DNA of 64,000 nucleotides from an uncultured Chloroflexia bacterium (GTDB lineage Bacteria > Chloroflexota > Limnocylindria > Limnocylindrales > CSP1-4), in contig CAVYBU010000030.1 in NCBI GenBank assembly GCA_963766735.1, positions 160,001 to 224,000 of the forward strand. The letters run 5' to 3'. The position numbers and the translations under genes are program-made. The notes under the pieces were generated by a model. That model was given only the letters and a program-made list of their open reading frames with translations, had not been told where the DNA came from and did no database searches. Position 1 is the first letter of the stretch. Every line of letters begins with the position of its first letter. Below are positions 40,227 to 64,000 of this stretch, piece after piece.

Positions 40227-41510
40227 CTAGCCCAGCTGGACCTCGCCGCGGAACGCTCCGGGTTCCTCGAGGCGGCGCCGCAGCGAGCCCAGGAACCGGG
40301 CCGCCAGCTCGCCGTCCACCTGGCGGTGGTCGGCCGAGAGCGTCAGCTTCATGATCGACCGGACGGCCATGCCATCCCCGATGGCGACGACCGTGGGGAC
40401 CGCGGAGGCGACCGCGAGGATCGCGGCCTCGCCCGGGTTGATGATCGCGCTGAACTCGTCCACGCCGAACATGCCCAGGTTGGACACCGTGAAGGTGCTC
40501 CCCGTCATCTCGTCCACCGGCAGGGTTCCGCTCCGCGCTCGGACGGCGAGGTCCGCGGCCCGGTCGTGAAGTTCCTCCAGCACCAGGCGATCGGCATCGC
40601 GGATGACCGGCACCACCAGGCCTCCCGGCAGCGAGACCGCCACACCGAGGTGGACGCGCCGGCGTGGCCAGACGGAGACGCCGTCCGAGCGCGAGTTGAC
40701 GTCCGGGAACTCCGCGAGGGTCTGGGCGGTGGCCGAGATGACGAAGTCGGTCACGGTCAGGTTCGTGCCGGCGGCCTTGAGCTCCGCGCGGAGGGCAAGG
40801 AGGCGCGTGACGTCCACGGCGACGGTCACCGTGAAGTGCGGGATGGTGGTCCAGGAGGCGGTGAGCCGGTCGGCGATGACGCGGCGCATCCGGGTGAGCG
40901 GCCGCGGCTCCTCCTCGCCGTCCACGGGCGCGACGGCCATCGAGGCGGCGGGCGAGCTGGCGGGCGCGGCGGCCGGTACGGCGGCAACTCGGGCGGCGAC
41001 GGCCGCCACGACGTCCTTCTCCGTGATCCGGCCCTCGGGTCCGGTGCCGGTGATCGTCCGTGGGTCGAGGCCCGCGTCGGCGGCGGCGCGGCTTGCGCGT
41101 GGACTGATGCGCAGGCGCGGGCCAACGCCCTGAGCCGGGGCCGTTGCCGCAGCCGGAGCTTGGGCCGGGGCCGCAGCCTGGGCCGGGGCCGTTGCCGCAG
41201 CCGGAGCCGCTGCCGCGGCCTGAACCGTCTCGGCCGGTGTCGCCGGCTCCGGTGCTTCCGGGATCGCCTCGCCCGGCTGGCCCACCCAGGCACAGACCTG
41301 GTTGACCGGGATCGTGGCGCCCTCCTGGGCGACGATCCGCAGGAGGACGCCCTCGTCGAAGGCCTCCACCTCCATGGCGGACTTGTCGGTCTCGATCTCG
41401 AACAGCACGTCGCCCCTGGCAACGTGGTCACCCTCGCGCTTGTGCCAGGCGATGACCGTGCACTCCTCGGTCGCCTGCCCCGGCTTCGGCATCAGGATCG
41501 CGTGCGGCAT
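40227..41510 (-). CDS. 2-oxoacid/acetoin dehydrogenase E2 (dihydrolipoamide acyltransferase)
   Basis: Lipoyl motif IETDKS, Ala/Pro linker, E3-binding GTGPEGRI, TVSNLGMFG, catalytic DHRQVDG. Confidence 0.94.
   Translation of the reverse strand: MPHAILMPKPGQATEECTVIAWHKREGDHVARGDVLFEIETDKSAMEVEAFDEGVLLRIVAQEGATIPVNQVCAWVGQPGEAIPEAPEPATPAETVQAAAAAPAAATAPAQAAAPAQAPAAATAPAQGVGPRLRISPRASRAAADAGLDPRTITGTGPEGRITEKDVVAAVAARVAAVPAAAPASSPAASMAVAPVDGEEEPRPLTRMRRVIADRLTASWTTIPHFTVTVAVDVTRLLALRAELKAAGTNLTVTDFVISATAQTLAEFPDVNSRSDGVSVWPRRRVHLGVAVSLPGGLVVPVIRDADRLVLEELHDRAADLAVRARSGTLPVDEMTGSTFTVSNLGMFGVDEFSAIINPGEAAILAVASAVPTVVAIGDGMAVRSIMKLTLSADHRQVDGELAARFLGSLRRRLEEPGAFRGEVQLG
41131..41207. repeat. Coding repeats in the E2 linker (APAAATAPAQ)
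   Basis: GCCGGGGCCGTTGCCGCAGCCGGAGC at 41134 and 41182. Confidence 0.75.
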
Positions 41511-41552
41511 GGCTCGTGGCCTCCCTGCGTGTCGGTCGTGCCCGGGTCGGGG

Positions 41553-43853
41553 CTAGAGGAGGCCCTTCGCCGCCGTGTAGATGTCCCCTGCGTTGGGGAG
41601 GAACGCCTTCTCCAGGCCCTCCGCCTGCGGGGAGATGCCGTTCTGGGCACCGATCCGGGCGACGGGGGCGTCGAGGTAGTCGAAGACCTCGCCCTGGATT
41701 CGCGCGACGATCTCGTTCACGAAGCTGCCCGACAGCACGGCCTGTGCCGCCACGACGCACCGCCCCGTCTTGCGGACGGAGGCGAGCACGGTGTCGATGT
41801 CGAGCGGGACGAGGCTCCGGATATCGATGACCTCGGCCGCCACGCCGTCCTCGTCTGCCAGCCGCGCGGCCGCCGCCAGGCAGTCCGCCACCGCGGGCCC
41901 CCAGCTGACCAGCGTCACGTCGGAACCCTCGCGGGCCACGCTGGCAACGCCGATCGGCACGAGGCTCTCGCCCTCGGGGACGATGCCCTTGGCCGTGTAC
42001 AGGCCCTGGCTCTCGACGAACATCACCGGGTTGCTGGTGCGGATCGCGGACTTCAGCAACCCCTTGGCATCGGCCGGATTGGACGGGTAGACGACGTAGA
42101 TGCCCGGGAGGTGCGTGAACAGGCTCTCCAGGGTCTGGCTGTGCTGCCCCCCGTAGCCCTTGCCGGCGCCGACAGAGGCCCGGATGACGAGCGGGACCTC
42201 CACCTGGCCGCCGCTCATGTAGTGCCACTTCGCGGCCTGGTTGGCGATCTGGTCCGACGCCATGAGCGCAAAGTCCATGTACATCAGCTCGACGACCGGC
42301 CGCAGGCCGACGATGGCGGCACCGACCGCCGTTCCGCAGATCGCGGCTTCGCTGATCGGCGTGTTGAAGACCCGATCCCGCCCGAAGGACTCGAGCAGGC
42401 CCTTGGTGAGCTTGAACGCGCCGCCGTACTCTGCGATGTCCTCGCCGTAGGTGATGACGCGGCGGTCGCGGACCATCTCCTCGATCATGGCCTCGCGGAG
42501 CGCGTCCTTGTAGCTGATCGCACCGTCGGGACCGCGCTTGGCCTCGGGGAGGGGAGCGAGGAGCTCCGCCGCCGTGTCCGCCGGGAGGTCGTCGGAGCTG
42601 CCGTCCGTGTACAGCAGGCGCAGCGCGTCGGACGGATCGGGATCCGTCGCGAGCGAGGCACGGACGGCCGCACGGGCGTTGCGCTCCTTCACGCGGGTCT
42701 CGACAGCAGCGACGCCAGCCTCGTCGGCGACGCCCGCCTCCAGGATCTGGGCCTTCAGGCGCTCGATCGGGTCGATCGCCCGCCAGGCAGCCTCCTCCTC
42801 GCGCGTCCGGTACTCGTTGCGCGGGTCGGACAGCGAGTGGCCGTAGTAGCGATAGGTGCTGGCCTCGATCAGCACCGGCCCCTGCCCGGTACGGCACAGC
42901 TCCACGGCGCGGCGGACCGCGTCCCGGACGGCCAGCACGTCCATGCCGTTGACCGTCTCGGCGTGCATCACGTTGTCCGCGAAGCCGGCGGCCCGCTGGG
43001 CCAGGTGGGCGACGCCCATGACCTCCTCGTCGGAGCGATGCGTCATGCCGTAGTGGTTGTTCTGGATGAAGTAGATGACCGGCAGGCCGTAGGGGTGATC
43101 GCCCGCCATGTGGTTGGTCCACTGCGCCTGCGCCGCCCAGTTGAGCGACTCGAGGACCACGCCGTTGGCATAGGCGCCGTCGCCCGCGAAGCAGCAGACG
43201 ACCCGGTCCGAGCGCTCGTAGCGGTGGGCCATCGCGGCACCGGTCGCGATCGGCACGCTTCCGCCCACGATGGCGTTGGCGCCGAGGTTGCCGGTGGAGA
43301 AGTCCCCGATGTGCATGCCGCCGCCGCGGCCCGCGCAGTAACCCTCCTCCTTGCCGAACAGCTCCGCGATCACGCGGTAGACATGCTGCTCGAGCGCAGC
43401 CTCGAGGAGCTCTTCGTGTGTCCCGCCGGCGCTGCCCGGAACCCGGGCGCGAAGCTGCTCGTCGTCCATGGTCCGGATGGAGGCGAAGCCCTTGGCGACG
43501 GCATCGCCGTGGCCGCGGTGGGAGCTGGTGACGTTGTCGTCGGTGCGGAGCATGCTGCAGGCGCCGACCGGGGAGGCTTCCTGTCCGATGGAGACGTGCG
43601 TCGGTCCGCGGTAGTCATAACCCGGGAGTGCGTCGTAGCCGCCCGACCGAAGCCGGACGATCATCTCCTCCACCTCGCGGATCGCGAGCATGTTGTCGAA
43701 CAGCTCCAGCGCCTCCGCAGGCGTGGTCGTGCCGGCCGCGATCTCGCTCGCCAGGCTGCCTGCATAGGTGAAGCCCCTGACAGTCCCCAGGGCCACCTCG
43801 AAAGGCTCCATGTCCGGGCGCACGTCGCTCTTGTAGGCCGTCTCGTTTGTCAC
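41553..43853 (-). CDS. Fused E1 alpha+beta ThDP-dependent dehydrogenase (AcoAB/PdhAB-like)
   Basis: HVSIGQEA, SHRGHG, GRGGGMH, ThDP motif GDGA...NN, YRYYGHS; beta part YGEDI, TPISE, GGQHSQ, DIRSLVPLD; GTG at 43853 with AGGA RBS. Confidence 0.92.
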   Translation of the reverse strand: MTNETAYKSDVRPDMEPFEVALGTVRGFTYAGSLASEIAAGTTTPAEALELFDNMLAIREVEEMIVRLRSGGYDALPGYDYRGPTHVSIGQEASPVGACSMLRTDDNVTSSHRGHGDAVAKGFASIRTMDDEQLRARVPGSAGGTHEELLEAALEQHVYRVIAELFGKEEGYCAGRGGGMHIGDFSTGNLGANAIVGGSVPIATGAAMAHRYERSDRVVCCFAGDGAYANGVVLESLNWAAQAQWTNHMAGDHPYGLPVIYFIQNNHYGMTHRSDEEVMGVAHLAQRAAGFADNVMHAETVNGMDVLAVRDAVRRAVELCRTGQGPVLIEASTYRYYGHSLSDPRNEYRTREEEAAWRAIDPIERLKAQILEAGVADEAGVAAVETRVKERNARAAVRASLATDPDPSDALRLLYTDGSSDDLPADTAAELLAPLPEAKRGPDGAISYKDALREAMIEEMVRDRRVITYGEDIAEYGGAFKLTKGLLESFGRDRVFNTPISEAAICGTAVGAAIVGLRPVVELMYMDFALMASDQIANQAAKWHYMSGGQVEVPLVIRASVGAGKGYGGQHSQTLESLFTHLPGIYVVYPSNPADAKGLLKSAIRTSNPVMFVESQGLYTAKGIVPEGESLVPIGVASVAREGSDVTLVSWGPAVADCLAAAARLADEDGVAAEVIDIRSLVPLDIDTVLASVRKTGRCVVAAQAVLSGSFVNEIVARIQGEVFDYLDAPVARIGAQNGISPQAEGLEKAFLPNAGDIYTAAKGLL

Positions 43854-43903
43854 CTGGTTCCTCCGGTCCGCCGTCGGGCGCCCGGGAGGAGTCCCGCCGC
43901 CGC

Positions 43904-44710
43904 TCATGCCTTGATCACGTTGATGCCAAGCCGCGCGAGGGTGCGCGCCGCCCGTTCGTCGATGCCCTCATCCGTCACCAGGATGTCCACCTGGTCCAGT
44001 CGCCCTGCGTTGACCAGGGAGCGCGTGCCGAGCTTGCCGCTGTCGGCCAGCAGGATCACCTCGCGCGCTCGCCCGATCACCAGTTCCTTGGTGTAGGCCT
44101 CGCCGGGATCCGTGGTCGTCATCCCGCCCTCCAGCGAGAACGCGAACGTGCCCATCAGCGCTCGGTCCACGTGGATGTCCTCGAGGAGTCGGCGGGTCAT
44201 GGGTCCGACCATCGCCTGGCTTCGCTCGCGCAGCTCGCCGCCGACCAGGATGAGCCGCGGCCCGCGCCCGAGCAGCTCGTTGGCCACGGGCAGGCTGTTG
44301 GTGACGACCGTGAGGCGATCCCAGCCATGGAGGAGCCGGGCGGCCGCGAGGACCGTGCTGCCGGAGTCCAGGTAGACGGTGTCGTCCGGGGCGAGGAGCC
44401 GCACGGCACGGTCGGCGATCCGCGCCTTCTGGGCGGCGGCGGCCTCGGCCTTGACGTCGAAGTGCGGCTCGTCCAGGCGACCGTCCATGGCGACGGCCCC
44501 GCCGTGCACGCGACGGAGGCGCCCGCCCGCCGCCAGCTCGTTGAGGTCCCGGCGGACCGTGGCCGGGGAGACGCCCAGGGTGGCGCTGAGCTCCTCGAGA
44601 CGGACTGCCCGACGCGTGTCCACGATGGCTCCGAGGCGCTCGCGGCGGGCTGCCGCGAGGTCGTGCGTCGGGGCAGGTGCAGCCGAATCGCTCACGTTTG
44701 GCAACGACAT
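43904..44710 (-). CDS. DeoR/GlpR family transcriptional regulator
   Basis: VSPATVRRDL, RVHGGA, YLDSGST, VVTNSL, LADSGKLG. Confidence 0.95.
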   Translation of the reverse strand: MSLPNVSDSAAPAPTHDLAAARRERLGAIVDTRRAVRLEELSATLGVSPATVRRDLNELAAGGRLRRVHGGAVAMDGRLDEPHFDVKAEAAAAQKARIADRAVRLLAPDDTVYLDSGSTVLAAARLLHGWDRLTVVTNSLPVANELLGRGPRLILVGGELRERSQAMVGPMTRRLLEDIHVDRALMGTFAFSLEGGMTTTDPGEAYTKELVIGRAREVILLADSGKLGTRSLVNAGRLDQVDILVTDEGIDERAARTLARLGINVIKA

Positions 44711-44847: not shown

Positions 44848-45516
44848 ATGCCCGAAGACCGTGCCATCTCGCGCAGTGTCCTGGCCGATCAGGTCAAGGA
44901 CCGCCTGCTGCAGGGCATCCTTTCGGGCCGCTATCCACCCGACTCACGGATCGTGGAAACGCGGGTAGCACGCGAGCTGGGCACCAGCCAGGCGCCCGTC
45001 AGGGAGGCCCTCCGGGGTCTCGAGGCACTGGGCGTCGTCGAGATCCTGCCCTTCCGTGGCGCGCGCGTCCGGAGCCCAAGCCTCCAGGAGCTGCTGGAAG
45101 CCTATGCGGTGCGCTCGGCGCTGGAGTCACTCGGCGCGCGGCTGGGGATCCAGCGCATGACGGATGCGGACCTCGCGGAACTGGAGACGCTGCACGAGGC
45201 GATGCAGCAGGCCGCGAAGATCGGGGACCGACACGAGGTCGCGGTTCACGACGCGGCGTTCCACGCGCGGCTCCTTGCCCTCGCGGGCAACCGGACGCTG
45301 GAGAGCGTGTGGAGATCGCTCGAGCCCTTCTCGCGGACCTACATCACGCTCGTCGCGCCGGGTGCGGACGCCCGATGGACCGCGGACCTGCACCCGCGCA
45401 TCCTGGCGGCCGTGCGCTCGCGGGATCCGGAAGCCGTGGTCGCGGCGCTGCGGCACCACTTTGACGAGGCCTCCGCCCACCTGGCCGAGGGCTGGCAGAC
45501 GGAGCCCACCAGCCGA
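44848..45516 (+). CDS. GntR/FadR-family regulator (HTH + FCD); end inferred, as the ORF runs on to 46629 as sequenced
   Basis: GGAG RBS, ATG 44848; ARELGTSQAPVREAL, YAVRSALE, DAAFH, HF. The domain ends ~45500 and an in-frame CGA at 45514 is one base from TGA. Confidence 0.85.
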
Positions 45517-45591
45517 TGGCCGCCGGTCGCGCGCCGCTGCGGGACGGGTGCTGCGGGACGGGTCACGCTGCCGGGAGCAACCGAGACCCTC

Positions 45592-46536
45592 TCAGGCGCG
45601 ACCCAGGATCGCGAGCACCTGTTCCGCGACCCGCGACGCCGACAGCCCGTAGATGTCCAGCAGCGCGTCGTTCGGGCCCGACTGGACGTAGGTGTCCTGG
45701 AGCCCGATCCGGTTGAGCTGCGTCGGGCGAAGCTCGCCCAGCACCTCGGCCACGGCGCCGCCCAGCCCACCGAGCACCGTGTGCTCCTCGACGGTGATCA
45801 CGCGGCCGGTCCGCTCCGCGGCGTCCACGATCGCCTCCGTGTCGAGGGGCTTGACCGTCGGCACGTGGAGGACGTGGGCGTCCACGCCCCGGGCCGCCAG
45901 CAGCTCGGCAGCCTCCACCACGCGCGGGGTCTGGGTACCCGTCCCGATCAGCGTGACGTCGCGCCCCTCGCGGACCACCACGGCCTTGCCGAACGCGAAG
46001 CGGTAGCTCGCGTCGAACAGCCGGGCGGTGCCGTCGCGCACGAGGCGCACGTAGCAGGGTCCCTGGTAGGCCGCGGCCCAGCGGAGGACCAGGTCGGCCT
46101 CCACGTCGTCCGCCGGCGCCACCGAGACCATGCCCGGCATCGCCCGCATGATCGCGAGGTCGTCCACGATGATGTGGCTCATCCCCGTCTGGCCCGTGAA
46201 CATCCCGGCATACCCGGGCGTGATCTTCACGTTCGCGCCCGTCTGGGCGATCAGCACCCGGATCTGGTCCAGCGGCCGGACCACCGCGAACGAGACGAAC
46301 GTGCTGATGAACGGGATGAGGCCCATGGTGGACAGCCCCGCGGCCACGCCCAGCATGTTCTGCTCGGCGATGCCCATCTGCAGGTAGCGGTCCGGGTGGG
46401 CCTTCTCGAAGATGTCGGCCCGCGTGGACGAGCCCACGTCGCCATCCAGCATCACGATCCGCGGGTCCTCGGTGGCCAGCGCCGCCACGGTCTCGCCGAA
46501 GATCTCCCGCATCGGGCGGCCAATCGGCAGCGTCAT
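45592..46536 (-). CDS. Split transketolase, C-terminal (pyrimidine-binding + C) subunit, AptB-like
   Basis: GIAEQNM, DQIR, MRAMPGM, YVRL, TVKPLD, EEHTVLGGLG; ATG overlaps the upstream TGA. Confidence 0.92.
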   Translation of the reverse strand: MTLPIGRPMREIFGETVAALATEDPRIVMLDGDVGSSTRADIFEKAHPDRYLQMGIAEQNMLGVAAGLSTMGLIPFISTFVSFAVVRPLDQIRVLIAQTGANVKITPGYAGMFTGQTGMSHIIVDDLAIMRAMPGMVSVAPADDVEADLVLRWAAAYQGPCYVRLVRDGTARLFDASYRFAFGKAVVVREGRDVTLIGTGTQTPRVVEAAELLAARGVDAHVLHVPTVKPLDTEAIVDAAERTGRVITVEEHTVLGGLGGAVAEVLGELRPTQLNRIGLQDTYVQSGPNDALLDIYGLSASRVAEQVLAILGRA

Positions 46537-47411
46537 CGTCCGGCCCCTTCCGCGGTAGCGGGCTCGCCCAGCTCGGCCATGGCCAGCTCGTACTCCTCGG
46601 GCTTGATCGCCCGCGTATGCCAGAAGTAGCGGCCCTCCATGAAGGAGACGCCCTTGCCCTTCACCGTGTGCGCGATGATCGCGGTCGGGCGACCATCTCC
46701 CTGCTCGGCCTCGCGCAGAACGCCGACGATGGCGGGCATGTCGTGCCCGTCCAGCTCCAGGACCCGCCAACCGAAGGCGGCCCACTTGGCAGCCAGCTCT
46801 CCCGGTACCTGGGGCGCGATGCGCCCGTCGGGTCCGTCGCCCGGCCAGCCGTACTGCTGGAGCTTGTTGTGGTCGACGATGGCCACCAGGTTGTCCAGCC
46901 CGTAGCGCTGGGCGGCCATGGCGGCCTCCCAGACTTCGCCCTCCTGGCATTCGCCGTCGCCCAGCATCACCCACGCCCGGACGTCCCTGCCCGTGAGCCG
47001 CGCGCCGAGAGCCATGCCCATGGCGGCGGAGATCCCCATGCCCAGCGACCCGGTGGACATGTCGAGGCCGGGCAGCCGGGTCATGTCCGGATGGCCCTGG
47101 AGCCGTGAGTGGGCGCCGTCGAACGTGAGCAGCTCCTCCACGGGGAAGTAGCCCCGCAGCGCCATCGCCGCATACAGCGCGATGGACGAGTGGCCCTTGG
47201 ACAGGATGAAGCGGTCCCGGTCGGGCCAGGCGGGATCGTCCGGCCGGATACGCAGCTCGTGGAAGTAGAGGGCAGCCAGGATGTCGGCGGCGGAGAGGGG
47301 ACCGCCGAGGTGGCCCGCGCGGGCGTAGTAGACGCTGCGGATGATCTCGACGCGGATGTTGCGAGCCACCTCCTCGAGACGCGCGATCCCGGCGGTGTCC
47401 AACGTGCTCAC
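46533..47411 (-). CDS. Split transketolase, N-terminal (ThDP-binding) subunit, AptA-like
   Basis: GHLGGPLS, DRFILSKGH, LQGHPD, STGSLG, GDGECQEG...DHN, HTVKGKG; GTG overlaps the cupin TGA. Confidence 0.93.
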   Translation of the reverse strand: MSTLDTAGIARLEEVARNIRVEIIRSVYYARAGHLGGPLSAADILAALYFHELRIRPDDPAWPDRDRFILSKGHSSIALYAAMALRGYFPVEELLTFDGAHSRLQGHPDMTRLPGLDMSTGSLGMGISAAMGMALGARLTGRDVRAWVMLGDGECQEGEVWEAAMAAQRYGLDNLVAIVDHNKLQQYGWPGDGPDGRIAPQVPGELAAKWAAFGWRVLELDGHDMPAIVGVLREAEQGDGRPTAIIAHTVKGKGVSFMEGRYFWHTRAIKPEEYELAMAELGEPATAEGAGR

Positions 47412-51866: not shown

Positions 51867-51870
51867 GCCG

Positions 51871-56592: not shown

Positions 56593-57401
56593 ACCGTGCC
56601 GAGATGCTGGCGCCGCTGAGGGCGCGACGGGCGGCGGGGGAGGCGATCGTGGTCGCCGGCGTGGGGAGCGGCATCACCGCCGACGCGGCGCGTGCCGGTG
56701 GCGCGGACCTGCTCGCCTGCTACGGCACGGCGGTGTACCGGATCCTGGGCGTGCCGACCGTCCTCGCCTTCCTCCCCTACGACGATGCCAACAAGCTCAC
56801 CCTGGAGCTGCTGCCGATCGTCGTCGAGCGGGCCAGGGGCCTGCCGGTCATCGGCGGGCTCGGGGCGCACGATCCGCGCCGATCGCTCGCCTCCCTCGTC
56901 GGCGCCGCCCGGGACGCCGGGGCCTCGGGTGTCACCAACGAGCCGTTCGCAGGGATCTACGGCCCCACCTTCCGCGCGGAGCTGGAGGCCACCGGGTATG
57001 GCTTCTCGCGGGAGCTGTCCATGCTGGAGCTGGCGTCCGGCCAGGGTCTCCTCACGCTCGGGTGGGCGTTCGACCCGGACGAGGCGCGACGCATGGCCGC
57101 GGCGGGCGTGGATGTCGTCGGGACGATGACGGGGATCACGGGCGCGGGATCCGCCGACGGGGCGATGGACGCCTTCGCCGCGATGGTCCGCGCCGCCCGG
57201 GACGAGAACCCGGAGACGATCGTGCTGCTCCATGGGGGGCCGCTGTCCGATCCGGCGTCCGTGGCCACGGGGCTCGCGGCCACCGGCGCCGACGGCTACG
57301 CCACGGGCTCCAGCGCGGAGCGCGGTCCGGTGCTCAGCGGGGTCCGGGAAGCCGTGGCGGCCTTCCGCGCCCTCCGGACGACGAACGCGGCTACCGGGTA
57401 G
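56589..57401 (+). CDS. PEP-hydrolase-family TIM-barrel protein, copy 2 (divergent)
   Basis: GVGSGITA, GGADLL, DAN, DP-R, GVTNEP, FRAELEATG-G, HGGP, GSSAER; ATG overlaps the upstream TGA. Confidence 0.82.
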   Translation: MNRAEMLAPLRARRAAGEAIVVAGVGSGITADAARAGGADLLACYGTAVYRILGVPTVLAFLPYDDANKLTLELLPIVVERARGLPVIGGLGAHDPRRSLASLVGAARDAGASGVTNEPFAGIYGPTFRAELEATGYGFSRELSMLELASGQGLLTLGWAFDPDEARRMAAAGVDVVGTMTGITGAGSADGAMDAFAAMVRAARDENPETIVLLHGGPLSDPASVATGLAATGADGYATGSSAERGPVLSGVREAVAAFRALRTTNAATG

Positions 57402-57434: not shown

Positions 57435-57860
57435 CTACTTGGTGGGGATCTCCCCCGCCGGCACGATCGTGCAATCGGGAAGGCCGCGCAGGAACGCCTC
57501 CGGGCCGCCCGGCGTGTAGATCGCCAGGATGCGGAGCGGCTCCCACGTCGTGTTGATCGTGGAGTGGAACGTGCTGTCCGGGATGAACGCCATGTCGCCC
57601 GCCCTGAGGTGCTTCACCACCGGGTTGCCGTCGGCGTCCTCGATCATCTGGTCGCCCTCGCCCGAGATGAAGTAGAGGACCTCGTCCGAACCGGGGTGGT
57701 TGTGGCGGGCATGACCCTTGCCGGGATCGAGGATGACCACGCCGCTGGTGAAGCGGTCGGCGCCCGTCGTCCGGACCTCGCTCATCCACTTGATCGAGCC
57801 CCAGTCGAAGACCTGGGTCTCGACGTCGTCCGGGGTGATGAACCGAAGATCGGCGGCCAT
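57435..57860 (-). CDS. Cupin domain protein (type typically found beside Tm-1-like/PEP-hydrolase genes)
   Basis: FDWGSIKW, PGKGHARHNHPGSDEVLY-ISGEG, FHSTINT-WEP, IYTPGGPE; GGAG RBS. Confidence 0.9.
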   Translation of the reverse strand: MAADLRFITPDDVETQVFDWGSIKWMSEVRTTGADRFTSGVVILDPGKGHARHNHPGSDEVLYFISGEGDQMIEDADGNPVVKHLRAGDMAFIPDSTFHSTINTTWEPLRILAIYTPGGPEAFLRGLPDCTIVPAGEIPTK

Positions 57861-57900
57861 TTCTGCTCCCAGTGCCTGCGCGGTGGTCGTTGGTCGGTCC

Positions 57901-58040
57901 ATAATCGATCATCGATGCCAACCCTGCAAGGCGTCCCGGCCCATGCCGGGCGGGCGCGGGCTCAGCGAGGCAGGTTCGGGCAAGTTCCGGCTTGACGCCG
58001 GACCGGTTCTGTTCCTACCATCGCTAATCGATTATCGAAC
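57901..58040. promoter_or_regulatory. Divergent promoter region with two putative island operators
   Basis: ATAATCGATCATCGATG (57901-57917); TTGACG-N18-TACCAT (57992-58021) directly followed by CTAATCGATTATCGAAC (58024-58040). Confidence 0.7.
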
Positions 58041-58120
58041 GTCACTTGTTCGAGACGTCCCGGCACCGGCAGCGCCGGAGCCAGCTCCAGACCCATCTCG
58101 CACCTGTGGGAGTGCACTTC

Positions 58121-58999
58121 TTGCCGAAGGAACTGGTCGAATTCCTGACGGTCGTCCTCAACGGCGTCACGCTCGCAGCCGTGTACTTCATCGTCGCCAG
58201 CGGATTCACCCTGATCTTCGGACTGATGCGGACGACCAACATGGCCCACGGGGCGTTCTACCTGCTCGGCGCGTACGCGGGCTACACGGCCGTGAGCATC
58301 ACCGGCAGCTGGGTGATCGGGCTCCTCGTGGGCGCCGCGGTCGTTGCGGTGGTCGGAACGGCAATCTACCTGGGGCTGCTCGCACGGATGGCCGGCCAGG
58401 ACCTGCGGCAGGCGCTGGTGACGATCGGTGTCTCGATCATCATCGCCGACCTGATGCTCGCCCGGTACGGCGGCGTCACGTACCAGATCCCGGTGCCGAG
58501 CCTCATCTCCGGCAGCACACAGCTGCCGTTCGTGGTCGGTGGCGGGTATTCGACGATCCGGCTGTTCGTGGTGGTGCTCGCAGTCGCGGTCTACGCCGGC
58601 CTGTGGCTGGTGCTCAACCGGACGCGCATCGGCATGTATATCCGGGCGGGCATCGATGATCGCGACATGCTCTCGGCGCTGGGCGTCAACGTGTCGCGCG
58701 TCTTCCTGTTCACGTTCGCCCTCGGCTCGGCCCTGGCGGGGCTTTCCGGCGTCGTCGGCGCGACGGTCCTCTCCGTCTCGCCCGGAGAGGAGGGGCGCTA
58801 CCTGCTGTCGTCCCTCGTCGTCGTGATCGTGGGCGGGATGGGAAGCCTCAGCGGGGCGGCGATCGGCGCCCTGATCGTCGGGCTCGCGGAGCAGGTCGGG
58901 CTGTTCTACGAGCCGACCTATTCGGTCCTGATCACGTTCATCATCATGGCCGGCGTGCTCGCGGTCAGACCCCAGGGTCTGCTGGGGCGACCCGCATGA
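58121..58999 (+). CDS. LIV-type ABC permease (LivH-like), second system
   Basis: LNGV, ASGFTLIFG-M---NMAHG, TRIGMYIRA, VVIVGGMGS, RPQGLLG; TTG start with GGGAG RBS. Confidence 0.9.
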   Translation: MPKELVEFLTVVLNGVTLAAVYFIVASGFTLIFGLMRTTNMAHGAFYLLGAYAGYTAVSITGSWVIGLLVGAAVVAVVGTAIYLGLLARMAGQDLRQALVTIGVSIIIADLMLARYGGVTYQIPVPSLISGSTQLPFVVGGGYSTIRLFVVVLAVAVYAGLWLVLNRTRIGMYIRAGIDDRDMLSALGVNVSRVFLFTFALGSALAGLSGVVGATVLSVSPGEEGRYLLSSLVVVIVGGMGSLSGAAIGALIVGLAEQVGLFYEPTYSVLITFIIMAGVLAVRPQGLLGRPA

Positions 59000-60183
59000 G
59001 CCGCCTGGCCGGCGGGCGCCGGATCGCGGAGCCCTGGGTGCAGCGGCTCACGCGCCGACCCTGGCTGCTGCCTGCGGCCGGGGTGGCAGCGCTCGTCCTG
59101 TACCCGGTGGTCATGTCACTCATCCTGCCGGCGAACCCGGCCCGGTTCTGGACCCTGTCCATCGGGGCCCAGACCTTCATCCTGGGCATCGTCGCCCTGA
59201 GCCTCGTGTTCATGTCCGCCTATGGCGGCATGGTGTCGCTTGCACAGGCCGCGGTGTCCGGGTTCGCCAGCTACATGGTCGCGCTGGCAGCCCTGGAGCC
59301 GAGCACCAATGCGATCGGCTCCACGATCGGCCTCGGCCTGCCGGCCATCCCGTCGGCGGTGATCGCCCTGGTGCTGGCCACGCTGGCCGGGGTGGTCATC
59401 GGGGCCATCACCGCCCGATCGTTCGGCATCTACGCCCTGATGCTGACCCTCGCCCTGGCGGTCGGGTTCTTCTACCTCGTCCTCCAGAACTACGACATCT
59501 TCGGCGGCCACATCGGGTTCGCCGGCATCGTCGGGCCCACGGGCCAGCCCCGTGCCAATCCGCTCGAGTTCTACTACCTGTGCCTGGTCGCCGCCGCCCT
59601 CACCTACCTGGCACTCCGGTACATCGTCCGGTCCACCCTTGGGCTCACGTTCCAGGGCATCCGGGACAACCCTCGTCGCATGAGCGCGCTGGGCTACCGG
59701 GTGGGGCTGCACCGCATCGTCCTGTTCGCCATCGGCGGCTTCGTCGCCGGCGTCTCGGGCGTCCTGGCGGTCTGGTATCGCGGCAACGTCTCCCCCGGTG
59801 TCGTGGACCTGACCCGAACCATCGACGTGCTGATCGTCGCCGTCATCGGCGGCCTCGGCTACCCGATCGGTGCGTTCGTCGGGTCAGCGGTGTTCCTGAT
59901 CATCGACACCTTCGCCAGCAGCATCCAGATCCTCGACTTCAGCTTCCGGGAGAGGTTCAACTCGCTTATCGGCCTCGGCTTCGTGATCATCGTGCTCGTT
60001 GCCCCCAACGGCATCGTCGGCTTTCTCGATCGCGGCTGGCTGTCCGCCGGGCGACGGGGCGGGAGGCATCGTCGGGCCGTGGACCCGCTGGCCGTGGAGG
60101 CCGGCATCGCCTCGGAGCCGGAACCGATGCCGCTCGTGCCCCCAGAGCTCCCTGACGACGACTCCCCGACCCCAAGCGGCTAG
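58996..60183 (+). CDS. LIV-type ABC permease (LivM-like), second system
   Basis: GMVSLAQ, MLTLA, STLGLTFQGIRDN, VIGG, PNGIVG. Confidence 0.9.
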   Translation: MSRLAGGRRIAEPWVQRLTRRPWLLPAAGVAALVLYPVVMSLILPANPARFWTLSIGAQTFILGIVALSLVFMSAYGGMVSLAQAAVSGFASYMVALAALEPSTNAIGSTIGLGLPAIPSAVIALVLATLAGVVIGAITARSFGIYALMLTLALAVGFFYLVLQNYDIFGGHIGFAGIVGPTGQPRANPLEFYYLCLVAAALTYLALRYIVRSTLGLTFQGIRDNPRRMSALGYRVGLHRIVLFAIGGFVAGVSGVLAVWYRGNVSPGVVDLTRTIDVLIVAVIGGLGYPIGAFVGSAVFLIIDTFASSIQILDFSFRERFNSLIGLGFVIIVLVAPNGIVGFLDRGWLSAGRRGGRHRRAVDPLAVEAGIASEPEPMPLVPPELPDDDSPTPSG

Positions 60184-60275
60184 CAGCGCAGGAGGACAGC
60201 AACCCAGAGACGCACAGGGTGATCCATCTGGACCACATGCCTCCCGTGCAGGACACGGAGAGGACAGGAGGAGCG

Positions 60276-61565
60276 ATGTTCGGATTTTCGACCGGCCGCA
60301 GGCTGGTAACGCTCATGATTGCCGTGGGGCTCGTCGCGTCAGTGTCCGCGTGCGGCGGCAGCGACGCCGAGAAGACCCCGATCAAGATCGGCGGTCTCGC
60401 GACGCTCGAGGGCCCGTTTGCGGTCCCCGGCCAGGACGGCATGCGCGGCATCGAGCAGGCGCTGAACAAGTTCGCGCCCAAGAATGCGGCCGGCAACTGG
60501 GAGATCGCGGGTCGCGAGATCATCCTGATCAAGGAGAGCTCGGACGGCGCCCCGGCGGTCGCGCTCGAGAAGGCCAAGAAGCTGATCGAGCAGGACGACG
60601 TTGACATCCTGATCGGCCCCCTCTCGGGTGACGAGGGACTGGCGATCAAGGACTACGCCAAGACAGTGCCGGACAAGACGTTCGTGAACGGGTCGTCTGC
60701 GGCCCAGGACACCACGTTCCGAGACCCCGCCCCGAACTTCTACCGCTTCTCGACCGACGGCGCCCAGTGGATGGCCGGCGTCGGCAACTACGCCTACAAC
60801 GACAAGGGCTACAAGACCGCCGCCGTCGTGGCGGAGGACTACTCCTTCCCGTACACCCAGGTGGGTGGCTTCATGTACGAGTTCTGCGCAGCCGGCGGCA
60901 AGGTCCCGTTCAAGGCCTGGGTCCCGCTCGGCACGAAGGACTACGCCTCGGTCGTCACGTCGATCCCGACGGACGTCGATGCGATCTACATCGCCCTCGG
61001 CGGCTCCGACGCGGTCAACTTCTTCACCCAGTACGCGGCAGCCGGCGGCAAGGCCAAGTTCATCGGCGGATCGATCACCGTGGACCAGAGCGTGCTGTCG
61101 GTCGAAGGCGACTTCAAGGACCAGCTGGTTGGCACCATCGCCGGTGGCCCCACCGCTGACACGACGGACGAGCCCGCGTGGAACGAGTACGTCAAGGAGT
61201 ACAAGGCGACGTTCCCGGACGGGCTGCCGTTCCCGGGCCTGTTCGCCCTCAGCTACTACAACGAGACCGTCGGCGTCCTGCAGGCCCTCAAGGAGGTCAA
61301 CGGCGACCTCAGCGACGGCCAGAAGGTCTTCATGGAAGCCCTCAGCAAGGTCGAGTTCGAGGGACCCACCGGGCACATCGCCCTCGATGGCAACCGCCAG
61401 GCTATCGCCCCCAACTACGTGACCGAGGTCCAGAAGGACGCCAGCGGCAACCTCGTGAACAACGTCATTGCCAAGGCTGTGGACATCGACCAGACGCTTG
61501 GCCTGGGTGCGGACAGCCCGTACCTTGCCCAGCCCGTCAGCCGGGACTTCCCGGACTGCAAGTGA
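60276..61565 (+). CDS. ABC substrate-binding lipoprotein (LivJ/K-type fold), second system
   Basis: Lipobox VSAC; IKIGGL-TLEGPF, GPLSGDEG, EDYSFPY, PLGTKDY, FEGPTG; AGGAGGAG RBS. Confidence 0.92.
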   Translation: MFGFSTGRRLVTLMIAVGLVASVSACGGSDAEKTPIKIGGLATLEGPFAVPGQDGMRGIEQALNKFAPKNAAGNWEIAGREIILIKESSDGAPAVALEKAKKLIEQDDVDILIGPLSGDEGLAIKDYAKTVPDKTFVNGSSAAQDTTFRDPAPNFYRFSTDGAQWMAGVGNYAYNDKGYKTAAVVAEDYSFPYTQVGGFMYEFCAAGGKVPFKAWVPLGTKDYASVVTSIPTDVDAIYIALGGSDAVNFFTQYAAAGGKAKFIGGSITVDQSVLSVEGDFKDQLVGTIAGGPTADTTDEPAWNEYVKEYKATFPDGLPFPGLFALSYYNETVGVLQALKEVNGDLSDGQKVFMEALSKVEFEGPTGHIALDGNRQAIAPNYVTEVQKDASGNLVNNVIAKAVDIDQTLGLGADSPYLAQPVSRDFPDCK

Positions 61566-62350
61566 CCCAGTCCACCAGCGCCGAGGCGCTCGTCCCCGCC
61601 CTGCGACTGCAGGGCGTGGGGCGGCGCTTCGGCGCCCTCCAGGCTCTACGCGACGTGACCATGGAGGTCGCCGTCGGTGAGCGGCGCGCCATCCTCGGCC
61701 CGAATGGGGCGGGGAAGACGACGCTGTTCAATGTCGTCACCGGTGACTATCTCCCGACATCCGGGAAGGTCGAGCTGTACGGGGCCGACGTGACCAGCCT
61801 GCCGCCTCACCGGCGGACCCGGCTGGGTCTGAGTCGGACCTACCAGAACTCCATGCTGTTCATGGGGCTCACCGTTGGCCAGAGCCTGTTTCTCGCGATC
61901 CGGGGCGTGCAGCGCGGGCGCTTTGACCCGCGCCGCCCGTCCGCCACTGATCCGGGCAGGGTGCGGTCCGAGGAGATCGCCTCGCTCGTGCACCTGTCGG
62001 ATGTCCTCAAGACCGCCGTGGGATCGCTTGCCCATGGCCAGCAGCGCCAATTGGAGCTGGGCATGGCGATCGCCGCGAGCCCTCGCCTCCTGATGCTGGA
62101 CGAGCCGGCCGCGGGGCTGTCGCCCGGCGAGCGGACTCTCCTCTCGCAGCTCCTCAGGGACCTGCCCCGCGAGATCACCGTGATCCTCGTCGAGCACGAC
62201 ATGGACGTTGCCCTCGCGGCCGCGGACCGGGTGACCGTGATGCACGAGGGCACCGTCATCGTCGAGGGCACGCCCGACGAGATCCAGGTCAACAGCATGG
62301 TCCAGGACATCTACCTGGGCCATCGCGTCACGGGTGATCATCGTGGCTGA
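61562..62350 (+). CDS. LIV-type ABC ATPase (LivG-like), second system
   Basis: GPNGAGKTTLFN, LAHGQQR, LDEPAAGLS, VEHDM; GTG overlaps the SBP TGA. Confidence 0.92.
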   Translation: MTQSTSAEALVPALRLQGVGRRFGALQALRDVTMEVAVGERRAILGPNGAGKTTLFNVVTGDYLPTSGKVELYGADVTSLPPHRRTRLGLSRTYQNSMLFMGLTVGQSLFLAIRGVQRGRFDPRRPSATDPGRVRSEEIASLVHLSDVLKTAVGSLAHGQQRQLELGMAIAASPRLLMLDEPAAGLSPGERTLLSQLLRDLPREITVILVEHDMDVALAAADRVTVMHEGTVIVEGTPDEIQVNSMVQDIYLGHRVTGDHRG

Positions 62351-63086
62351 TCCCGTCCTCGAGATCTCGGGGCTCAACGTCCGCTACGGCCGGAGCCACA
62401 TCCTGCAGGGCGTGGATCTCGTCGTCGGCGCCGAGCCTCTCTCGCTCATCGGCCGCAACGGGATGGGCAAGACGACGCTGTGCAACGCGATCGTGGGGCT
62501 GGTTCCCTCCTTCAGCGGCTCCGTCCGGCTCGCCGGCAAGGAGCTCACGGGCCTCAAGCCGCACGAGATCGCCCGTGCGGGGATCGGGTACGTTCCTCAG
62601 GGTCGCCGCGTGTTCCCGTCGCTGTCGGTTGCCGAGCACCTGAAGATGGTCGCGCCCCGGAACGGCAATGGCTGGACCATCAAGCGGATCTACGAGCTCT
62701 TCCCGCCCCTGGCGACGCGCAAGGGGCACGGTGCCATGCAGCTGTCCGGCGGCGAGCAGCAGATGCTCGCGATCGCACGCGCGCTGCTCCTCAACCCGCA
62801 CCTGCTGATCATGGACGAGCCTTCGGAGGGTCTCGCGCCGATCGTCGTGGAGCACCTGGTCGGTGTCCTGCGTGACGTGGCGAAGGAGGGCGTCGGGCTG
62901 CTGCTCGTGGAGCAGAACCTGGGCGTCGCAACGTCGGTGGCGGATCACCTCGCGATCATGGTCACCGGGAGAATCGCGCTGGAGACCACGTCCACCGAGC
63001 TCGTTGGGGACGAGGCCGCCCAGCGTCGCTACCTCGGCGTGAGCAGCCATCTCGAGCAATCGGCCGAGGCTCCGGCCAAACCCTAG
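62343..63086 (+). CDS. LIV-type ABC ATPase (LivF-like), second system
   Basis: GRNGMGKTT, YVPQGRRVFPSL, LSGGEQQMLAI, DEPSEGLAP, VEQN. Confidence 0.92.
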   Translation: MADPVLEISGLNVRYGRSHILQGVDLVVGAEPLSLIGRNGMGKTTLCNAIVGLVPSFSGSVRLAGKELTGLKPHEIARAGIGYVPQGRRVFPSLSVAEHLKMVAPRNGNGWTIKRIYELFPPLATRKGHGAMQLSGGEQQMLAIARALLLNPHLLIMDEPSEGLAPIVVEHLVGVLRDVAKEGVGLLLVEQNLGVATSVADHLAIMVTGRIALETTSTELVGDEAAQRRYLGVSSHLEQSAEAPAKP

Positions 63087-63100
63087 GAGGTCATTCCCTC

Positions 63101-64000
63101 ATGGCGAGCGTCGTGCTCCTCGGAACCCTTGATACCAAGGGGGCCGAGTACGAGTTCCTGTGCAACCGCGTCCGCGAATTCGGCTGTGACGTGATCCTCG
63201 TGGACGCGGGCGTGACGAGCGCCTCGTCCGCGGCGGACATCTCGGCGGACGACGTCGCCGCCGCCGCTGGCGTCGACCGTGCCGCTCTCGCCGCGGCGCA
63301 TGACCGGGGCCCCGCGGTCGCCGCCATGACCCGCGGCGCGATCGAGGTCGTCAAGCGCCTCTACGCCGAGGGCCGCCTCAACGGGATCCTGGGCGCCGGC
63401 GGCTCTGGGGGAACCTCGATCGTCTCGGCTGCCATGCAGGCACTCCCAGTGGGGGTGCCCAAGCTCGTCGTCTCCACCGTTGCCTCGGGGGATACCCGCC
63501 CGTACGTCGGCACCTCCGACGTGGCGATGATGTACTCGGTCGTCGATATCGCCGGGATCAACGGCCTGTCCGAGAAGATCCTCACCAACGCTGCCGCGGC
63601 GATCGCCGGGATGGCCCGCGCGGACGCGTCGTTCGTGTCCACGATCGAGCGGAAGCCCCTGATCGGGGCGACGATGTTCGGGGTCACGACGCCGTGCGTG
63701 ACGCTTGCCCGCGAGCTGCTCGAGGCAAAGGGCTACGAGGTCCTCGTCTTCCACGCCACGGGCGCCGGCGGCCAGTCGATGGAAGCCCTCATGAAGGCGG
63801 GCTTCATCACCGGGGCGCTGGACGCCACCACCACGGAGCTGGTGGACGAGCTCGTAGGTGGCGTGCTCTCCGCGGGCCCCGACCGCCTGGAGATGGCAGG
63901 CTCGCTGGGCATTCCACAGGTCGTGTCGCTGGGTGCCCTCGATATGTGCAACTTCGGGCCCAGGGACACTGTCCCCGCGCAGTTCGACAAGCGGAACCTG
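63101..64000 (+). CDS. Tm-1-like ATP-binding domain protein (UPF0261), copy 2; truncated by the window edge
   Basis: Absent from the ORF track because it has no stop in the window. AGGAGG RBS, ATG at 63101; my translation gives MASVVLLGTLDTKGAEY, GGSGG, LPVGVPKLVVSTVASG, DIAGING, TMFGVTTPC, FHATG-GGQSME, NFGP. Confidence 0.9.
   Translation, partial: MASVVLLGTLDTKGAEYEFLCNRVREFGCDVILVDAGVTSASSAADISADDVAAAAGVDRAALAAAHDRGPAVAAMTRGAIEVVKRLYAEGRLNGILGAGGSGGTSIVSAAMQALPVGVPKLVVSTVASGDTRPYVGTSDVAMMYSVVDIAGINGLSEKILTNAAAAIAGMARADASFVSTIERKPLIGATMFGVTTPCVTLARELLEAKGYEVLVFHATGAGGQSMEALMKAGFITGALDATTTELVDELVGGVLSAGPDRLEMAGSLGIPQVVSLGALDMCNFGPRDTVPAQFDKRNL

Follow-up and report, generated by a model that had tools for sequence, protein, structure and literature searches.

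The UPF0261 and PF09370 protein families are very widespread in bacteria, archaea and fungi, and the two are fused in all land plants as Tm-1-like proteins. Within UPF0261 an activity has been assigned to MarK alone, and none has been assigned to any PF09370 protein. MarK (Saro_1862 of Novosphingobium aromaticivorans) was reported in 2025 to phosphorylate the hydroxyl group of acetovanillone and other phenols, converting ATP to ADP, and its authors regarded this as the first activity for the UPF0261 family (PMC12624787); with this ATP-to-ADP kinase, the statement in the initial annotation of the DNA studied here that such proteins have no demonstrated substrate is outdated. According to abstracts, the tomato Tm-1 protein acts through binding a protein. 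The native biochemical role of the plant Tm-1-like protein is described as not established in a paper that argues for a UPF0261-PF09370 interaction from the plant fusion (PMC5028733), and one paper lists COG5441 and COG5564 as a co-occurring pair in fungi. In tetritol catabolism, L-erythrulose-1-phosphate is reported to be converted to D-erythrulose-4-phosphate and then to erythrose-4-phosphate by LerI followed by DerI (PMC10733421), and a 2025 paper notes the absence of any reported transporter or kinase for free tetroses (PMC12780249). Here, we analysed a stretch of 64,000 nucleotides (the window) from an uncultured soil-type Chloroflexota-type bacterium, in which a gene island at 40227-64000 contains two UPF0261 genes and two PF09370 genes together with two ATP-binding cassette (ABC) importers, two cupins (cupinA and cupinB), a split transketolase and paralogues of triosephosphate isomerase (TIM) and RpiB. 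We found that one operator is repeated in front of these units and tentatively regard the region from about 44.8 kb to beyond 64 kb as one catabolic regulon. As far as our searches show, this is the first case in which a shared operator connects the conserved UPF0261-PF09370-cupin cassette with enzymes that have known substrates.

The initial annotation had noted one upstream motif shared by most units of the island, and this motif proved to be real. It is a palindrome, TCGATNATCGA, which could be extended to a 15-bp operator, ATAATCGATNATCGA. With at most one mismatch the palindrome gave 13 matches, against 2.16 ± 1.69 expected, and none of 100 shuffles reached 13; the 15-mer with at most three mismatches gave 18 matches, against 1.21 expected, a count that was reached by no shuffle. 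Five exact operator cores were located inside the island, all of them intergenic, and the operator was present in every divergent or promoter region from cupinA-transketolase through the second importer, as follows.

47819-47833: operator 1 (ATAATCGATTATCGA), upstream of cupinA-transketolase, after the hairpin that follows the gene of the first substrate-binding protein (SBP1)
52927-52941: operator 2, between LivH1 and the TIM paralogue, with a weaker copy at 52969-52983
54378-54392: operator 3, between the RpiB paralogue and PF09370 #1
57901-57915: operator 4, at the cupinB start, between cupinB and LivH2
58024-58038: operator 5, 8 bp before LivH2, directly after a -35/-10-like promoter at 57992-58021

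Only two sigma-70-like promoter matches were found in 44-64 kb, and both end directly beside an operator, namely operator 5 and operator 1, the latter adjoining the -35/-10-like promoter for cupinA-transketolase. The sites are kept in the close relatives L004 and L006 described below. One further match to ATAATCGATNATCGA lies inside an unrelated gene (32238-32252), and the intergenic region between the DeoR and GntR genes gave no operator match, a half-like sequence alone being present there. The Tm-1-like genes, both importers, both cupins, the isomerase paralogues and the split transketolase thus share an operator, which we take as evidence, at the level of sequence, that they are co-regulated.

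On the megaplasmid of Thermomicrobium roseum we found an operon with the order LivH-LivM-SBP-LivG-LivF-UPF0261-PF09370-GntR. The 15-mer occurs upstream of the LivH-to-PF09370 part of this operon and again just upstream of the subsequent GntR gene, with 1 and 2 mismatches (two sites, against 0.11 expected), and the GntR protein encoded in the window is 40.5% identical to the one that ends the T. roseum module. As the operator travels with the module and its GntR gene, the GntR protein is likely the regulator of the regulon. Its helix-turn-helix and FCD domains, together with the repeated operator in the target promoters, are consistent with a GntR/FCD regulator and its cognate operator, and it is likely a repressor of the genes from cupinA-transketolase to the third PF09370 gene, which lies past the window end.

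The window has a G+C content of about 70%; gene calling relied on third-position G+C, and names were assigned with Pfam and NCBIfam. Every gene class that the initial annotation had listed for the island was found in its place with these two databases.

40227-41510, minus strand: E2 dihydrolipoamide acyltransferase (Pfam lipoyl, E3-binding and catalytic domains)
41553-43907, minus strand: fused E1 alpha and beta, thiamine-diphosphate dehydrogenase component, 784 amino acids (Pfam E1_dh, Transket_pyr and Transketolase_C)
43904-44710, minus strand: DeoR/GlpR-family regulator (Pfam HTH_DeoR and DeoRC)
44848-45600, plus strand: GntR/FCD-family regulator (Pfam GntR and FCD)
45592-46542, minus strand: transketolase C half, pyrimidine-binding and C-terminal domains (Pfam, NCBIfam)
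46533-47465, minus strand: transketolase N half, thiamine-diphosphate-binding domain (Pfam)
47408-47776, minus strand: cupinA, small metal-binding monocupin (Pfam Cupin_2; HxH...E...H motif in the translation)
47990-52770, minus strand: importer 1, whole block (Pfam)
47990-49393, minus strand: lipoprotein SBP1
49438-50154, minus strand: LivF1
50147-50938, minus strand: LivG1
50928-51866, minus strand: LivM1
51871-52770, minus strand: LivH1
53021-53818, plus strand: TIM paralogue (Pfam TIM PF00121, 1.9e-63)
53815-54288, minus strand: RpiB paralogue (Pfam LacAB_rpiB PF02502, 2.7e-55)
54434-55285, plus strand: PF09370 TIM barrel #1 (Pfam, 8.3e-98)
55313-56592, plus strand: UPF0261 #1, Tm-1-like ATP-binding protein, presumed kinase, frameshifted (PF06792 and PF23189)
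56589-57401, plus strand: PF09370 TIM barrel #2, divergent paralogue (Pfam)
57435-57902, minus strand: cupinB, metal-binding monocupin (Pfam)
58046-63086, plus strand: importer 2, whole block (Pfam)
58046-58999, plus strand: LivH2
58996-60183, plus strand: LivM2
60219-61565, plus strand: lipoprotein SBP2
about 61562/61616-62350, plus strand: LivG2
62334-63086, plus strand: LivF2
63101-64000, plus strand: UPF0261 #2, truncated by the window end (Pfam, NCBIfam)

DeoR is the first gene of a DeoR-E1-E2 operon, in which the DeoR stop codon overlaps the E1 start, and the cupinA-transketolase operon begins with cupinA. The Pfam scan of 44.8-64 kb revealed no gene for a dehydrogenase, a hydrolase, a CoA ligase, a known aldolase or a classical sugar kinase. 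The two importers are full Liv/Urt-type (HAAT) sets, each with two permeases, two ATPases and a Peripla_BP_6 binding protein, and they score below the urea-transporter equivalog cut-offs of NCBIfam. No relative of SBP1 was found in the PDB. The best PDB relative of SBP2 is 4ZPJ, on which a literature search gave nothing relevant; the next are the aromatic-acid binders 4EY3 and 4EVQ, for which the PDB search itself gave generic molecule names and E-values alone, and these are followed by urea binders. In-frame tandem repeats were observed in the E2 linker (24-nt period, 41118-41213) and in the N-terminal Ala/Pro-rich tether of SBP1 (21-nt period, 49222-49293).

A genome scan with PF09370 #1, based on narrow peptide patterns, gave five loci, of which three were close relatives, one was a Conexibacter pair and one was spurious; conservation across genomes is thus under-sampled. 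L004, from a metagenome-assembled genome labelled Chloroflexia whose PF09370 #1 is 97% identical, is syntenic with the window from DeoR to a third PF09370 gene. This third gene follows UPF0261 #2, which is complete in L004, and lies just past the position of the window end, so that the module at the end of the window would consist of importer, UPF0261 and PF09370. The second relative, L005 (88%), consists of a short contig that carries UPF0261 between two PF09370 genes. In L006 (90%) the left part comprises E2, E1, DeoR, GntR, transketolase and cupinA, followed directly by PF09370 #1, and the right part comprises a UPF0261 remnant of 62 amino acids, PF09370 #2, cupinB, importer 2, UPF0261 #2 and PF09370 #3. 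An extra 1 kb between PF09370 #2 and cupinB in L006 had no blastn match in the window and gave a weak SnoaL-like match alone (Pfam). The importer-1/TIM block (47990-53818, compared with L004:3554-9382) is 69-90% identical to L004, with SBP1 at 69%, whereas identities of 89-100%, mostly at least 93%, were obtained for the remaining genes that were compared; this block looks like a variable or exchanged cassette.

Two genes of the window carry frame-disrupting indels. The coding sequence of UPF0261 #1 falls into two frames, with the N domain ending at 56026 and the C part starting at 55963, and compared with the intact gene in L004 (426 amino acids) and L005 (one frame, 418 amino acids from the match start) the window copy is 1 nt short near 55955-55968; the two pieces match positions 4-209 and 210-403 of the NCBIfam profile, without loss. 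The GntR open reading frame keeps its FCD domain and has lost its stop codon, which in relatives comes after 239-242 amino acids, and it runs to 46629 antisense to the transketolase gene. Compared with L004, the C-terminal tail of GntR is changed (45460-46629). An assembly error is a live possibility for both indels, next to a real mutation, because L006 has many split matches alike.

The initial annotation had placed the TIM and RpiB paralogues in the LerI and DerI types, and signature substitutions bear this out. The TIM paralogue keeps the catalytic Lys, His and Glu (WKMN, GHAERR and AYEPVWAIG are present), scores below the NCBIfam TIM equivalog cut-offs and has LerI, the isomerase of L-erythrulose-1-phosphate (11ef; 4.4e-48, 167.3 bits), as its second-best PDB match. 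It reads GTSWKMN and GRRAL where 11ef has GTSWKMN and GRSA and the canonical 1yya has GNWKMH and GGASL. The LerI signature as used here (Ser in place of Asn ahead of WKMN and, in phosphate loop 8, GR(S/R)A in place of GGAS) is an unpublished definition that we derived from alignments, and both the LerI and the DerI signature rest on very few sequences. In Rhizobium phaseoli, the TIM encoded in an apiose-type cluster follows the LerI pattern (GTSFKMN and GRSA), and the rhizobial TIM beside a split transketolase is canonical (GNWKM and GGAS). Similarly, the RpiB paralogue has the catalytic CGTGIG cysteine and reads GSDEAG, KSNNA and GGGSARKV, versus GSDHGG, EHNDA and GGRHATRV in canonical 3HE8. 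RpiB paralogues beside LerI-type TIMs, in R. phaseoli and in an aldehyde-dehydrogenase/TIM/RpiB/alcohol-dehydrogenase cluster of Streptomyces rimosus, show GADSAG/GADDAA and KSNNA/KSNDA and have lost the Arg-His pair. The lower half of the proposed pathway would be of a known kind. That the two genes are housekeeping copies was also considered and was rejected, since both carry signature substitutions and are preceded by operators.

The transketolase is split into N and C halves, as AptAB is, and its N half is 46-54% identical to split transketolases on plasmids and 52% identical to a stand-alone split transketolase of Collinsella. No apiose-pathway families were found in the island (Pfam, NCBIfam), so the co-location that would mark AptAB is absent. 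Elsewhere, similar split transketolases stand alone, as in Collinsella, or occur with other kinases, and the split transketolase was for this reason rejected as a sole marker of apiose catabolism. Because the stand-alone enzymes are about as similar as those from ketose clusters, the assignment to AptAB made in the initial annotation is not justified.

The UPF0261 proteins of the window have both domains of the family (PF06792 and PF23189) and the D-T-K motif of the N-terminal ATP site, and LDTKG is invariant in 27 of 27 aligned UPF0261 sequences. In the alignment to MarK (PDB 9MPY), the equivalents of G195, H219 and H304 are kept in window-type proteins. In the L004 orthologue of UPF0261 #2 the MarK pocket is changed at T196 (to V), F283 (to M), I285 (to N) and H348 (to I), with residues counted by hand, and this orthologue scores 308 bits against Tm-1 and 235 bits against MarK. 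A kinase activity of the window proteins is inferred by homology to MarK, and UPF0261 would be the only candidate kinase, because no classical sugar kinase or other ATP-using candidate was found in 44.8-64 kb. Pfam scans of the whole window found no acetovanillone carboxylase or phosphatase families.

For PF09370 #1 the only PDB relative by sequence is 2P10, the sole solved member of the family, which was deposited as a 'putative phosphonopyruvate hydrolase' with no function assigned; the family is filed with the phosphoenolpyruvate (PEP)/pyruvate-type barrels. Among metagenome proteins, at least 120 clusters show 70-94% identity to PF09370 #1. PF09370 #2 is 40% identical to #1, with an 8-residue loop deleted, and may be a specialised form or a partner subunit of it; #2 keeps all family-invariant residues and loses several nearly invariant positions, for example in the YNTGPFRM and HVGLT motifs. 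Polar residues of the family are invariant across the three paralogues and 24 relatives. The AlphaFold model of PF09370 #1 had a mean predicted local distance difference test score of 86.4, and a Foldseek search of it against the PDB gave, after 2P10, generic TIM barrels alone, with TM scores of about 0.5-0.6 (TrpA, methylisocitrate lyase, KPHMT, KDPG aldolase, PdxS, TIM and ThiE). In an Atlas search excluding PF09370 the best score was 0.81, for HisA/ThiE/TrpA-like clusters, which is below the level of more than a lead. A complex prediction of UPF0261 #1 (L004 copy) with PF09370 #1, made without controls, gave 0.00 in two runs and is neutral on binding. CupinB is 54% identical to a cupin beside PF09370 on Haloferax volcanii pHV3, and its best PDB relatives are manganese oxalate-decarboxylase-type cupin domains.

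Additionally, we looked at the setting of PF09370 genes on plasmids, where 234 records had a match, all below 60% identity, and 13 contexts were inspected that had been chosen for taxonomic spread, not at random (nine among the top 40 and four others taken from a listing made for spread). In all 13, UPF0261 was found no more than 8 kb from PF09370, and in 12 it is adjacent or one gene away, as it is in the window, where the order is PF09370-UPF0261-PF09370. In Variovorax it was hidden in a 750-amino-acid 'permease', which according to Pfam combines a LivF-type ATPase with UPF0261 in one fusion. Small cupins were seen in 7 of the 13 contexts, with tight operons in Haloarcula (PF09370-cupin-UPF0261) and in Sinorhizobium and Mesorhizobium (UPF0261-PF09370-cupin). 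A Liv-type importer adjoins the cassette in three (Haloferax, Thermomicrobium and Variovorax), and a CUT1 sugar importer lies beside it in four; Gfo/Idh/MocA oxidoreductases are present too in Terrarubrum and Rhizobium sp. NLR16a, and in Mesorhizobium they are near the cassette without a CUT1 importer. In 5 of the 13 contexts the cassette has a GntR-type gene as its neighbour. Since the contexts elsewhere look aromatic or sugar-like, the substrate class may differ from case to case. The Tm-1-like module is thus found in a metabolic, transporter-linked setting, in line with the metabolic role that had been proposed for it.

Several unusual gene forms were observed in the same survey. In Terrarubrum (L009:6064-7914) and Azospirillum (L011:8806-10632), sigma-54 enhancer-binding activators with PF09370 as N-terminal (sensor) domain lie beside UPF0261-PF09370 operons. 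The Variovorax paradoxus fusion of a LivF-type ABC ATPase and UPF0261, annotated as a permease, is at L022:7705-9957. The metagenomic protein P0241 is a 952-amino-acid fusion of ABC_tran, UPF0261 and PF09370, and P0242 is a 719-amino-acid, prokaryote-type fusion of UPF0261 and PF09370. In T. roseum the module is followed on the same strand (L003:12911-23079) by GntR, cyclase-family, PEP/pyruvate-binding and PEP-utilising (dikinase-like) genes, and further along by FAD-binding, fumarylacetoacetase-family, ABM monooxygenase and molybdenum hydroxylase genes; this setting looks like aromatic or heterocyclic catabolism.

Taken together, we propose that the regulon serves to import a small carbohydrate or ketol that is phosphorylated by UPF0261 and processed by PF09370 and the cupins to erythrulose phosphate, which is then isomerised to erythrose-4-phosphate for the transketolase. 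We find this reading plausible, together with the single regulon that it presupposes, and hold it with slightly more doubt than conviction. Through the two Liv/Urt-type importers, one or two small and polar carbon compounds with the oxidation level of carbohydrate would enter the cell. The gene set leaves isomerisations, one phosphorylation, the PF09370 step and a two-carbon transfer, and the imported compound would therefore already be at the oxidation level of a sugar; as a first guess we name a sugar or ketol with four carbons (for example erythrulose, erythrose or threose), or else a keto-acid sugar closely related to these. Aldose-ketose or keto isomerisation (or decarboxylation) may be carried out by the cupins, and ATP-dependent phosphorylation of the imported compound by UPF0261. 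A kinase is needed because LerI- and DerI-type enzymes and transketolase need phosphate esters, and UPF0261 is the sole ATP-using candidate. PF09370 would act on the phosphate ester by epimerisation, isomerisation or carbon-carbon cleavage or decarboxylation, with L-erythrulose-1-phosphate or D-erythrulose-4-phosphate as the product. The LerI-type TIM and the DerI-type RpiB would convert this erythrulose phosphate to D-erythrose-4-phosphate, which the split transketolase would bring into the pentose-phosphate pathway. In this scheme the kinase activity of UPF0261, all roles of PF09370 and the cupins, and the identity of the substrate are inferred. Literature searches with family names, product names and COG and InterPro identifiers found no publication with this gene set, which agrees with the earlier description of the pathway as undescribed.

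A number of observations weigh against this proposal. The expected co-location of the cassette with the isomerases and transketolase held in the close relative L004 and did not hold further: L006 is without importer 1, TIM and RpiB though it keeps cupinA-transketolase and the Tm-1-like genes, and TIM, RpiB or transketolase was near PF09370 in none of the 13 plasmid contexts. In two plasmid records listed for both TIM and PF09370 the genes were not near each other in either, so that the cassette is tied to LerI/DerI and transketolase in this clade alone, with L006 as an exception. UPF0261 #1 is frameshifted in the window and reduced to the remnant in L006, and the MarK pocket residues F283, I285 and H348 are not conserved. 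The best PDB match of the TIM paralogue is canonical TIM 1yya (201.9 bits, versus 167.3 for LerI), and the RpiB paralogue just passes the NCBIfam RpiB equivalog TIGR01120 (144.7 versus 138.65) and fails the rhizobial DerI model NF051858 (153.2 bits versus a cut-off of 240). With an unspecific fold search, the role given to PF09370 is a guess. Those relatives of SBP2 that are solved with a ligand are binders of aromatic acids or of urea and not of sugars, and the cassette contexts in T. roseum, Variovorax and Azospirillum look aromatic. Liv/Urt-type importers are not known to import sugars.

A variant of the pathway, which we consider unlikely and nevertheless take seriously, starts from a keto-acid sugar. 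Here UPF0261 would phosphorylate a 3-oxo (or 2-oxo) five-carbon acid sugar, and PF09370 or a cupin would decarboxylate the phosphorylated beta-keto acid to L-erythrulose-1-phosphate, followed by LerI, DerI and transketolase; these steps would be a non-homologous counterpart of the four-carbon-acid-sugar kinase and decarboxylase steps of the apiose and tetronate pathways. The R. phaseoli cluster has such a logic before a LerI-type TIM and a DerI-type RpiB, under a GntR/FCD regulator ('NanR'). FCD-type GntR regulators usually sense carboxylates, and an acid-sensing regulator type fits the variant, as do the oxalate-decarboxylase-type relatives of cupinB and the place of PF09370 among PEP/pyruvate-type barrels, with 2P10 named a putative phosphonopyruvate hydrolase. 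Every conserved member of the cassette would have a task, and the occurrence of the cassette without LerI/DerI elsewhere would be explained, because a shorter substrate would give triose phosphate. However, the island has no dehydrogenase to make the oxo group from an aldonate, so that import would have to deliver the oxo acid as such; PF09370 is not known to act as a decarboxylase, and the fold search gave no preference for the isocitrate-lyase/PEP-mutase group over phosphate-binding barrels.

It is also improbable, yet deserving of attention, that the two parts of the island are merely juxtaposed. The importer-UPF0261-PF09370-cupin modules would then handle a non-carbohydrate, for example a phenolic or aromatic acid activated in a MarK-like way, and TIM, RpiB and transketolase would form an unrelated tetrose/pentose-phosphate unit. 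The only characterised UPF0261 enzyme acts on phenols, the SBP2 relatives 4EY3 and 4EVQ fit this, and so do the three aromatic-looking contexts. Also the absence of TIM, RpiB and importer 1 from L006, the larger divergence of this block from L004 than of the rest and the lack of a link to TIM, RpiB and transketolase in all 13 other contexts are as expected from juxtaposition. What speaks against it is the one operator before all units, including TIM, RpiB and cupinA-transketolase. Moreover, Pfam found no ring-cleavage, carboxylase, CoA-ligase or beta-oxidation genes in the island, the UPF0261 proteins here are closer to Tm-1 than to MarK and have a more polar pocket, and in rhizobial contexts the cassette is accompanied by ABC importers of the sugar type and by oxidoreductases of the Gfo/Idh/MocA family.

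The ATPase fusions suggest that phosphorylation may take place directly after import. A more specific and decidedly speculative form of our proposal is that the UPF0261 kinase, together with PF09370, is docked on the Liv/Urt ATPase and phosphorylates the substrate on entry, as an ABC counterpart of group translocation. The island would then encode the missing uptake-and-kinase system for free tetroses, and the same chemistry would be the housekeeping role of plant and fungal Tm-1-like proteins.

The initial annotation had let the pathway continue through the fused E1 and E2, with oxidative cleavage of a ketose or ketol to an acyl-CoA, which we now regard as very unlikely. E2-E1-DeoR is directly beside GntR and transketolase here and in L006, and DeoR regulators commonly sense sugar phosphates; in Haloarcula, the 1 of the 13 cassette contexts with an E1/E2 operon, a 2-oxoacid dehydrogenase operon lies 7 kb from the cassette. 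However, no operator was found upstream of DeoR-E1-E2, and with no E3 gene in the 64 kb (Pfam) the 2-oxoacid dehydrogenase set of E1, E2 and E3 is incomplete. The best family matches of E1 and E2 are of the ordinary pyruvate dehydrogenase (PDH) type: the fused E1 passes the NCBIfam PDH E1-beta subfamily cut-off (360.9 versus 321) and does not reach the E1-alpha equivalogs, and E2 scores below all NCBIfam cut-offs for PDH and 2-oxoglutarate dehydrogenase E2. A plasmid search with the fused E1 gave generic E1 alpha/beta pairs alone, about 40% identical; the other 12 cassette contexts are without E1/E2, and synteny was found only in a relative with 75-88% identical gene products (L006, where E2 in the same place is 75% identical). 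Because of the missing operator and E3 and the ordinary PDH-type matches, we leave DeoR-E1-E2 outside the pathway, as an operon that is regulated separately and adjacent to the regulon; the proposed cleavage is unsupported, with no link to the pathway.

That UPF0261 and PF09370 are not enzymes and instead act as sensors or regulators, gating the ABC importers or signalling substrate, is highly improbable: the sigma-54 activators with a PF09370 domain beside the cassette, the fusions of UPF0261 to importer ATPase in Variovorax and P0241 and the protein binding described for tomato Tm-1 point that way, but MarK is reported to turn over its substrate as a true enzyme, PF09370 has invariant polar residues as in a catalytic site, and without UPF0261 the island would have no kinase for the phosphate esters needed by LerI, DerI and transketolase.

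Outside the island, the remaining window contains unrelated housekeeping genes (Pfam scan). The left border of the island is formed by a PAS-GGDEF gene and a gene for a fused FAD-oxidase/Fe-S protein. These lie just left of E2 (36062-40214, plus strand), and the fusion, of 1023 amino acids, has FAD-linked oxidase, 4Fe-4S dicluster and CCG domains of the glycolate/D-lactate-dehydrogenase type. With tblastn, the GGDEF, FAD-oxidase and methyltransferase proteins had no match in L006 or at any of the other loci. At 30970-31072 on the minus strand, directly upstream of a MalK-type ABC ATPase gene (29884-30987), we found a malK-III RNA motif (Rfam RF03009), whose score of 72.9 bits is above the gathering score of 50. 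A tRNA-Ser(GGA) called by ARAGORN at 9337-9413 (plus strand) lies inside and antisense to a class II ribonucleotide reductase gene (6713-9892) and is probably a false positive.

The operator tie to enzymes of known substrates, from erythrulose phosphates to erythrose-4-phosphate, narrows the search for the substrate of the cassette to a few compounds that can be purchased or easily made, and the island gives a testable first guess at the function of the Tm-1-like module. It is also a candidate for free-tetrose transporters and kinases, a point of relevance where sugars derived from formose are to serve as feedstock. Should the link to the pathway prove wrong, a clean regulon is nevertheless defined by the operator, and the conserved importer-UPF0261-PF09370-cupin cassette is still a good target for function discovery.

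In comparison with described systems, the island resembles the tetritol catabolism of Mycolicibacterium smegmatis (LerK, LerI and DerI, as reported in PMC10733421 and PMC12780249) in having TIM-family and RpiB-family isomerases side by side, with LerI- and DerI-type substitutions and a predicted route from erythrulose phosphate to erythrose-4-phosphate. Unlike that system, it is without a polyol dehydrogenase and a classical erythrulose kinase and has Liv/Urt-type importers, UPF0261, PF09370 and cupins instead. The oxidative D-apiose-type cluster on an R. phaseoli plasmid, annotated as NanR, oiaX, four-carbon acid sugar kinase, TIM and RpiB, shares with the island the GntR/FCD regulator, the LerI-type TIM and the DerI-type RpiB, and in both, for the island as proposed here, a kinase is followed by a carbon-carbon bond-breaking enzyme and then by isomerases; it differs in its DUF1537-type kinase and RuBisCO-like protein, which belong to unrelated families, and in its sugar-type importer. 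A rhizobial chromid cluster of SorC regulator, FGGY kinase, split transketolase, sugar ABC importer, short-chain dehydrogenase/reductase and TIM has, like the island, a split transketolase (N half 49-50% identical) beside a TIM paralogue and an importer, and shows that split transketolases are used in ketose catabolic clusters, whereas its TIM motifs are canonical, its kinase is of the FGGY type and it is without UPF0261, PF09370 and cupin. The T. roseum operon has the same gene order as the window from 58046 to 64000 and beyond, with 43-69% identity over the seven genes compared (43-61% for importer 2, in identical order), but LerI, DerI, transketolase and an annotated cupin are not nearby. 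With MarK the island proteins share both UPF0261 domains, the D-T-K motif and the residues equivalent to G195, H219 and H304; MarK was characterised alone, as a homodimer, its gene is beside those of the acetovanillone carboxylase, and its F283, I285 and H348 are replaced here. Finally, both halves of tomato Tm-1 and of the plant Tm-1-like fusion are homologous to proteins of the island, in which the halves are separate genes in operons with importers.

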